Shown here one piece after another: positions 22,892-23,449 of a stretch of DNA of 64,000 nt; position 1 is the stretch's first letter, and the number at the start of each line of letters is the position of its first letter. The notes under the pieces were generated by a model, which made no database searches, had not been told where the DNA came from, and saw nothing but the letters and a program-made list of their open reading frames with translations. Source of the stretch: Escherichia coli (lineage in GTDB: Bacteria; Pseudomonadota; Gammaproteobacteria; Enterobacterales; Enterobacteriaceae); assembly GCF_013315695.1 (NCBI RefSeq), contig NZ_CP054353.1. One strand, 5' to 3'. The position numbers and the translations under genes are program-made.

Positions 22892-22916
22892 CGCGCTCCG
22901 CTTGTCTGCTGCTTCG

Positions 22917-22942
22917 CCGGGGCATAAAAAATTTATGCCCCG
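22917..22942 (+). terminator. Hairpin terminator candidate after Q
   Basis: CGGGGCATAAAAAATTTATGCCCCG perfect hairpin. Confidence 0.5.
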
Positions 22943-22949
22943 ACTCACC

Positions 22950-23300
22950 AGCTCCGGTGTGTCACGCACCAGGCATCTCAGGGATCTACCAGGTTGAATA
23001 ACCTGTCAGCACACGCCGCACCAAAGCGCATCACAGGGCGTGTGATGCATCAGCCCATACTTCACACACAACCAATAAAACATCGCGTCAGGGGCGCAAT
23101 CAGCCGCATTTCTGGCGATTTCTGAGGGTGCTTTCAGACCCCAAATTGCGGGCTGTTCCCCGGCACCTGCGCGCAGAAAAAACGCGTTTTTTTGTGCACG
23201 CACGGATCCTTGACGGATCCAGCCGCCACGGGGGCCGGAAGGGCAAAAAGTCGTTCAAAAAAATTGTGCAAATTTGTGCACTATTGTGCAGTAGAGCGAT
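22950..23300. other. Expected cos region (exact cohesive-end site not identified)
   Basis: In P2, cos lies next to Q; this interval is non-coding and contains palindromes (AAAAAACGCGTTTTTTT, GGATCC-TTGAC-GGATCC). Confidence 0.3.
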
Positions 23301-23449
23301 ACATGATTTTCGCCTTTATTTCAGTGTGTTCAGGTGGTCATTCTCAATACCCATTTGGTGAGAGACAGGAATAAAAATGATCTTTATCAGTAGGTTATGT
23401 GTGTGATTAAATTAGATGCAGCACGTTTAGTCCCCAGAACCCAAGACCA

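Follow-up and report, generated by a model that had tools for sequence, protein, structure and literature searches.

TTGTGCA boxes beside the predicted cos site of a P88-like Escherichia coli prophage as a probable terminase-recognition array

We analysed a 64,000-nucleotide stretch of Escherichia coli DNA (contig NZ_CP054353.1 of assembly GCF_013315695.1; "the window" below) that carries a P88-like prophage (genus Xuanwuvirus, P2 family), and concentrated on the region at 22892-23449 in which an earlier note had pointed out three TTGTGCA repeats and placed the packaging site cos. The left border of this region is the portal gene (gpQ homologue, 21842..22891, plus strand; PF04860; 77% identical to the P88 portal and 47% to P2 Q). 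It is preceded by the gene for the large terminase subunit (gpP homologue, 20088..21842, plus strand; Pfam Terminase_5, HTH_23, Terminase_6N and Terminase_6C; PF03237, PF17289, PF06056), and the small terminase subunit (gpM homologue; PF05944, E = 6.5e-37; 36% identical to P2 gpM) is encoded at 17161..17958 on the minus strand. Both terminase subunits are encoded by the element itself, as is usual in the P2 family. On the right lies an accessory (cargo) gene of the DUF3800 family (23450..24256, plus strand; PF12686, E = 3.5e-10), followed by a gene annotated as ParM (24804-25763, minus strand), with a partition protein also nearby, and by the gpA replicase gene (25840-28713, minus strand). The order terminase, portal, non-coding region, cargo and replicase side is common to the window, P88, Chuche and Shae_phiSM, and also to P2, and it puts the cos region where P2-family elements have it, between the portal gene (Q) and the right-end accessory and replication region.

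The region was said to be non-coding, and it contains no long open reading frame (ORF) with conservation among relatives. An inverted repeat follows the portal stop immediately and occupies 22908..22952 on the plus strand, with its core, GGGGCATAAA/TTTATGCCCC, at 22918-22944. This hairpin folds at -14 kcal/mol with a z of -5.35 (DNA fold), and is identical in an alignment of the window, Chuche, P88 and Shae_phiSM. It probably terminates transcription of the terminase-portal operon, and tQ is annotated at the corresponding place in P2. A search of Rfam 15 at a permissive threshold gave nothing at gathering score, and its lone match, to gyrA-RNA at 22.1 bits against the 45 required, fell on the same hairpin. 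Between this terminator and cos the alignment shows a lineage-specific spacer of 183 nt (22965..23147), unlike the P88-type sequence and with inverted repeats of its own at 23007-23048; matches in other E. coli genomes begin at 23148. The remainder is made up of the predicted cos cleavage region (23150..23167), a perfect palindrome whose T-run leads into a first TTGTGCA box (23177..23192; AAAAAACG/CGTTTTTT, from an inverted-repeat search), that proximal box itself (box 0; 23192..23198, plus strand, about 25 nt past the predicted overhang), a spacer of 65 nt that is fixed in length and variable in sequence (23199..23263), the three distal boxes (23264..23290, plus strand), and a leader of the DUF3800 gene (23291..23449, plus strand) that is common only to loci with the same cargo. 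The palindromes that had been claimed for the region are therefore present, at 22918-22944 and at 23177-23192. The T-run before box 0 is among the most conserved columns of the family. We rejected a hairpin or terminator after the overhang (23177-23192), since in the window lineage the palindrome there is no more stable than shuffled sequence (z = 0.26).

Comparison with P2, P4 and 186 predicts cos at about 23150-23167, inside the region to which it had been assigned. The predicted cohesive end of the window, recognized by its homology to the P2 end, is GGGCTGTTCCCCGGCACC (18 nt, plus strand). The cohesive end is 19 nt long in all relatives examined (GGGCTGTTCCCCCG[G/T]CACC); GGGCTGTTCCCC(C)G[G/T]CACC aligns without gaps to the cohesive end of P2, the reverse-complemented P88 consensus GGTGACGGGGGAACAGCCC equals P2 GGCGAGGCGGGGAAAGCAC at 13 of 19 positions (manual count), and bridging sequences such as CTTGCTCCCCCGCCTCGCC occur in other genera. 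By this homology the window site belongs to the known P2-family cos sites. The window differs from every relative examined in the C-run at 23158-23161, which is CCCC in place of CCCCC and accounts for the 18-nt predicted overhang; CCCCC is kept even in the nearest relatives, which have the same portal type and the DUF3800 cargo (L123, L069, L076 and L079), and the missing C may reflect either a sequencing error in the homopolymer or a genuine mutation of cos. In the Chuche deposit (L001, PP925824.1), 7 nt (CTGTTCC) are missing within the predicted cohesive end, at about 2790-2800. This suggests, and does not prove, an assembly artefact at physical ends, and hence the predicted cut. None of the P88-type records in the phage collection begins at the predicted cut site.

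The three repeats reported for about 23262..23292 are there, as the exact string ATTGTGCAAATTTGTGCACTATTGTGCAG at 23263-23291. The TTGTGCA copies start at 23264, 23274 and 23284 and so repeat every 10 bp exactly; box 0, on the same strand, is a fourth copy and starts at 23192, 72 nt upstream of the first of them. TTGTGCA is not enriched in the window (13 copies against 17.7 expected, both strands), and these four copies are the sole cluster of the motif within the 64 kb. Its density is about 1e-4 per position and strand, from which a triple in exact 10-nt register is expected about 1e-7 times per window. Thus base composition does not explain the triple. The repeats had also been described as lying just upstream of the DUF3800-like gene; they end 160 nt before its ATG and are not immediately in front of it. 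The spacer between box 0 and the distal boxes contains, in the window lineage, ACGGATCC twice (at 23202 and 23213) and A-tracts.

The distal boxes are the last element of a block that is conserved whatever gene follows it. In the alignment of the window, Chuche, P88 and Shae_phiSM the sequences agree throughout from about 23148 to 23290 and cease to be related at 23291. Since the sequence is variable to the left of 23148 and again to the right of 23290, the conserved unit is a 143-bp island. This block, 23148-23290, was found in 1148 of 5426 complete E. coli genomes, and nearly all of the matches run from query position 19 to positions 161-164, which is from 23148 to 23290-23293 in the window; the only matches to reach past the third repeat come from loci that share the DUF3800 cargo. 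Scanning IMG/VR with a pattern gave the same picture, with 64 different 30-mers directly after the third repeat among 123 oriented loci; four pattern matches (L049, L073, L107 and L118) were unrelated tandem repeats and were set aside. The cargo itself is a DUF3800 gene in the window and in Chuche, two small minus-strand ORFs in P88 (with a terminator-like hairpin between them and the repeats), the membrane protein memP in Shae_phiSM, and a 399-residue protein with a TOPRIM protein in the P88-like prophage of E. coli JP538 (L212, 3730-5450). This last pair recalls the ATPase-plus-TOPRIM defence pairs (PARIS, OLD-like). The repeats are identical beside at least five unrelated cargos and so do not travel with a regulated gene, and the motif comparison with homologous loci upholds their conservation in related loci. 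Between the window and P88 the portal is 77% and the large terminase about 74% identical, and the 143-bp block is nearly identical; the packaging site is therefore far better conserved than the proteins that are thought to act there.

A cos-adjacent hotspot between cos and the replication gene was described in 2022 (PMC9122126). The DUF3800 gene of the window sits in that hotspot, and neighbouring loci hold unrelated systems there in either orientation. The repeats differ from the contents of the hotspot in being its fixed border, and backbone homology ends at the last box (23284-23290).

The same arrangement recurs in family members with known DNA ends. Counted from the first base after the overhang, ATGCA boxes begin at 24, 96, 106 and 118 in P2, at 24, 96, 106 and 119 in 186, at 24, 96, 106 and 115 in PSP3 and at 24, 96, 106 and 119 in P4, and the GTGCA boxes of the window begin at 26, 98, 108 and 118. 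In all five, the first distal box starts 72 nt after the proximal one and the second distal box 10 nt after that, and the sequence between the boxes is unrelated between P2, 186, PSP3 and P4 on one side and the window on the other. Like the window, these four have cos between the portal gene Q and a right-end cargo slot (old/tin in P2), a GC-rich homologous cohesive end, and boxes in the same orientation with a TGCA core. They differ from the window in box flavour, (A/C)ATGCA in place of TTGTGCA, in the last distal step, which is 9-13 nt in the P2/186 group and exactly 10 nt in the window, and in that their ends are experimentally known, whereas those of the P88 lineage are predicted by homology and span 18 nt in the window copy. 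P4 needs the P2 terminase for its packaging, and its homology to P2 is said to be limited to a 55-bp cos (PMC9594776, PMC9122126). This 55-bp homology covers the proximal box alone, and P4 still keeps three distal boxes; they lie between cos and the psu 3' end, with the cargo hotspot of P4 (gop, beta, cII) across cos from them. In the accessible literature, the primary 1990 cos paper excepted, we found no description of this "1+3 TGCA-box" layout with its 72/10 spacing, and we do not claim it as new. Many lineages also have GC-rich dyads of differing sequence in the centre of the spacer, about +60 to +85 from the overhang, for example CGCGCCAG-CA-CTGGCGCG in Brenneria, CCGCGCC-GGGAAT-GGCGCGG in P4 and GCCCGCC-GGGACT-GGCGGGC in Escherichia sp.; P2 is without one, and 23216-23235 of the window is weakly dyadic. 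Such a dyad may serve cos as a further element, either bound by a protein or extruded as a cruciform.

We then measured conservation in a sample that did not presuppose the motif. Eighty loci were gathered through portal-protein homology, one genome per species, and the cos regions were stacked on their CCCCG core, which left 43 non-redundant sequences including P2, P4 and the window (the only three not collected through the portal). Of the 43, 39 have a TGCA starting at column +37, 32 have one at +109, 30 at +119 and 22 at +129, and five more have one at +132; the mean per column over the stack is 0.83. Information peaks at the cos core, at the T-run with box 0 and at boxes 1-3, and falls to about zero after 23290. 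The genera covered include Kosakonia, Yokenella, Klebsiella, Enterobacter, Pantoea and Brenneria, and also Xenorhabdus, Photorhabdus, Providencia, Erwinia, Rouxiella and Buttiauxella. Within the P88 type (eight species and the window), pairwise identity is 100% over the 28 box positions, 89% over the linkers, 89% over the predicted overhang, 71% over the spacer and 37% over the 27 nt past box 3. On these alignments the "1+3 TGCA-box" layout lies on the right-end side of the known or predicted cos in enterobacterial P2-family phages and their satellites. In betaproteobacterial relatives the cos core was not found with the pattern used, and we make no claim for them.

Satellites other than P4 carry the array as well. 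E. coli JP538 (L130, NZ_AP025180.1) has a 12-kb island at about 7700-20300, between hpt and gcd, with genes for two integrases, a toprim primase, an Icd-like protein, a helix-turn-helix (HTH) regulator and an ogr/Delta-like zinc finger, together with a 236-residue protein without Pfam match, a P2-family major capsid gene and MazEF. The island contains no portal, terminase or tail genes, and tblastn comparison with P4 psu, delta, sid and alpha gave no match at E <= 1e-5. Its only TTGTGCA copies within 22.6 kb are the four at 11288, 11360, 11370 and 11380, which is the spacing 72, 10, 10. The JP538 genome also carries the P88-like prophage mentioned above, with which the island has only the cos core and the four boxes in common; the sequence between the boxes differs from that of the phage. 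The island looks like a satellite of P88-like phages that encodes a capsid protein itself. Matches to its cos region occur in 467 of the 5426 E. coli genomes and are full-length in 53. Helper-type cos sites in satellites, with P2-type boxes in P4 and a P88-type core and boxes in the JP538 island, are a further feature of the P2 family. In IMG/VR, several loci that contain the repeats lack portal and terminase genes upstream of them, and one of these loci corresponds to the JP538 island; loci L036, L111, L019 and L084 are of a similar satellite type.

The four TTGTGCA boxes are the most conserved part of cos, have a fixed geometry, are indifferent to the neighbouring gene and occur in two unrelated kinds of satellite, and a terminase-recognition array explains this combination best. 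We therefore think it likely that they form the recognition array of the prophage cos, as the P88-lineage version of the "1+3 TGCA-box" layout. Terminase would bind the boxes, which all have the same orientation, through gpM or through the N-terminal HTH of gpP. Distal boxes at 10-bp steps would sit on one face of the helix, and the proximal box, about seven helical turns (72 nt) away, would adjoin the cleavage site. A spacer of fixed length and rich in A-tracts might let both sets of boxes be held in one complex, which would place the nuclease on the cohesive end of about 19 nt (about 23150-23167) and mark the DNA for packaging. If the third box is, as we propose, the last essential base of cos, it doubles for that reason as the fixed left edge of the exchangeable cargo slot.

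Phage lambda offers a familiar parallel. Its cosB consists of R3, I1, R2 and R1, where the R sites bind the small terminase subunit gpNu1 and a bend induced by IHF organises the whole. Like lambda cosB, the P88-type array has short repeats on one side of the nicking site, proximal and distal, with a spacer of fixed length between them, and in the P88 type their binding is putative. There is no sequence similarity between the two. The P88-type array is on the cos side away from the gpP and gpM genes, whereas lambda cosB is on the terminase-gene side, next to Nu1. The P2-family large subunit, moreover, has an HTH of its own, so that the reader of the boxes may not be the small subunit, unlike in lambda. 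This domain occupies residues 11-67 of gpP in the window (20118-20288; Terminase_5/HTH_23), and its helix reads NT[I/V/L]Y[S/A]W[K/R][K/R]R where the boxes are gTGCA and PTVQSWK[Q/L]R where they are aTGCA, for example NTIYSWKKRD in gTGCA lineages against PTVQSWKQRD in aTGCA lineages. P2 was checked afterwards and fits the aTGCA helix group as predicted. We treat this co-variation of helix and box flavour as a lead only, as one change on the tree could account for it and the comparison covers gpP. No solved structures of gpM or of the gpP N-terminus were found. A more far-reaching version, in which the full array and not the 55-bp core sets packaging specificity in the P2 family, and in which a flavour read by the gpP HTH defines both helper-satellite compatibility groups and the recombination border of the hotspot, is a tentative suggestion that we think will probably not hold in full.

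Several observations count against a recognition array. The distal boxes are degenerate in several lineages (TGCG and TGTG, for example), and 13 of the 43 cos regions lack an exact proximal TGCA or have fewer than two exact distal copies; from such degenerate copies it appears that the array tolerates some decay. Within 23148-23290 there is no IHF consensus WATCAANNNNTTR with at most one mismatch, unlike in lambda cosB, and a lambda-like IHF site in the spacer was accordingly dropped as a candidate. The 55-bp P2/P4 cos of the literature would take in just the proximal box; the distal boxes, lying outside it, may thus be stimulatory without being essential. A cosmid study did name the length of the cos flanks as the cause of large differences in the efficiency of P2 transduction (PMC9594776). 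A P2-like packaging polarity was not found in the accessible literature, which leaves cosB-like initiation undistinguished from a cosQ-like or end-holding role. In P2, finally, the old/tin promoter has its -35 region right beside the third box and its annotated starts 30 nt downstream of that box, so that the boxes may also have a role in transcription.

Two such transcriptional roles can be considered. The earlier note had suggested that the repeats are a regulator binding array controlling the DUF3800 cargo, and direct repeats at 10-bp spacing are indeed typical of operator arrays and lie upstream of that gene on the same strand. Identical repeats, however, stand beside unrelated cargo in either orientation, and in P88 the cargo reads toward them with its terminator-like hairpin in between. 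The array is also present in satellites (in P4 on the cos side away from the cargo slot), the cargo-specific leader begins only after box 3, where homology ends, no second TTGTGCA array exists in the window, and hotspot systems are reported to work from native promoters when cloned out of context (PMC9122126). No promoter that uses the repeats was found either. The distribution largely refutes the suggestion, and we regard an operator of the cargo as very improbable. A promoter or UP-like element of the backbone that drives transcription into any cargo could appeal to the P2 arrangement, in which TTGAATGCAA overlaps a -35-like hexamer, and to the resemblance of TTGTGC to the first half of a -35 element. 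A scan of 22700-23700 for promoters and terminators, however, gave no sigma-70-like promoter; all it returned were two weak terminator-like sites on the minus strand, and by manual reading no acceptable -10 lies 16-18 nt after any box of the window. The cargo is often on the opposite strand, the P4 boxes face the psu 3' end, and the fourth box 72 nt upstream and the strict spacing would be left unexplained; we consider such an element improbable. The one weak promoter candidate in the leader 23291-23449, read manually and below the scan threshold, is TTATCA (23384-23389), 17 nt and TGaTTAAAT (23404-23412). A site for an Ogr/Delta-type activator (TGT-N12-ACA) was also tried and rejected, as by manual reading the box spacing does not fit. 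A secondary influence on cargo transcription, with terminase binding interfering with the border promoter in P2, could in principle accompany a recognition array.

The other rivals keep the boxes in DNA maintenance or packaging. ParR centromeres are arrays of short direct repeats, and the ParM gene with its neighbouring partition protein, about 1.2 kb downstream, might call for parC-like iterons. Boxes are present, however, in P2, 186, PSP3 and P4, whose examined stretches have no annotated ParM or partition gene close to cos, and in the JP538 satellite island, which has no annotated ParM gene; in the window type a cargo of variable length separates them from parM, and they lie downstream of the operon, not upstream. 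On this distribution we rejected a centromere, which we regard as scarcely credible. A packaging site that acts outside initiation, either as a cosQ-like termination signal or in holding the DNA end at the portal or tail for ejection, fares better: the mature genome has the boxes at its right end, on the side that does not carry the terminase genes and opposite to lambda cosB, and conservation and presence in satellites fit any cis-acting packaging function equally. P2 matures monomeric circles, however, and if that is so a single cos would serve both roles and a separate termination signal would be less needed, and a multi-copy array with its proximal box at the cut site looks like a recognition site. 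We think this role unlikely, though a serious minority possibility.

In annotation the boxes should not be labelled a cargo regulator, and P88-like prophages acquire a precise predicted cos block of 143 bp (23148-23290). Prophages of this type are very common, the block being present in roughly a fifth of complete E. coli genomes. The border of the cos-adjacent defence hotspot is pinned to a single base, which aids automated extraction of cargo. The "55-bp cos" of P2 and P4 probably omits conserved recognition elements about 96-125 nt from the cut, a point that matters for the design of cosmids and transducing particles, and box flavour becomes a testable predictor of which helpers mobilise which satellites.

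In some relatives there is a second variable slot, on the portal side of cos, with inserted genes; its counterpart in the window is the short stretch of 183 nt at 22965-23147. Three loci (L051, L010 and L109) have a minus-strand gene of 166-236 codons there, at about -990 to -190 from the repeats, whose products appear related by eye, and another (L013) has in this slot a toxin-antitoxin-like pair that is, by eye only, BrnT/BrnA-like.

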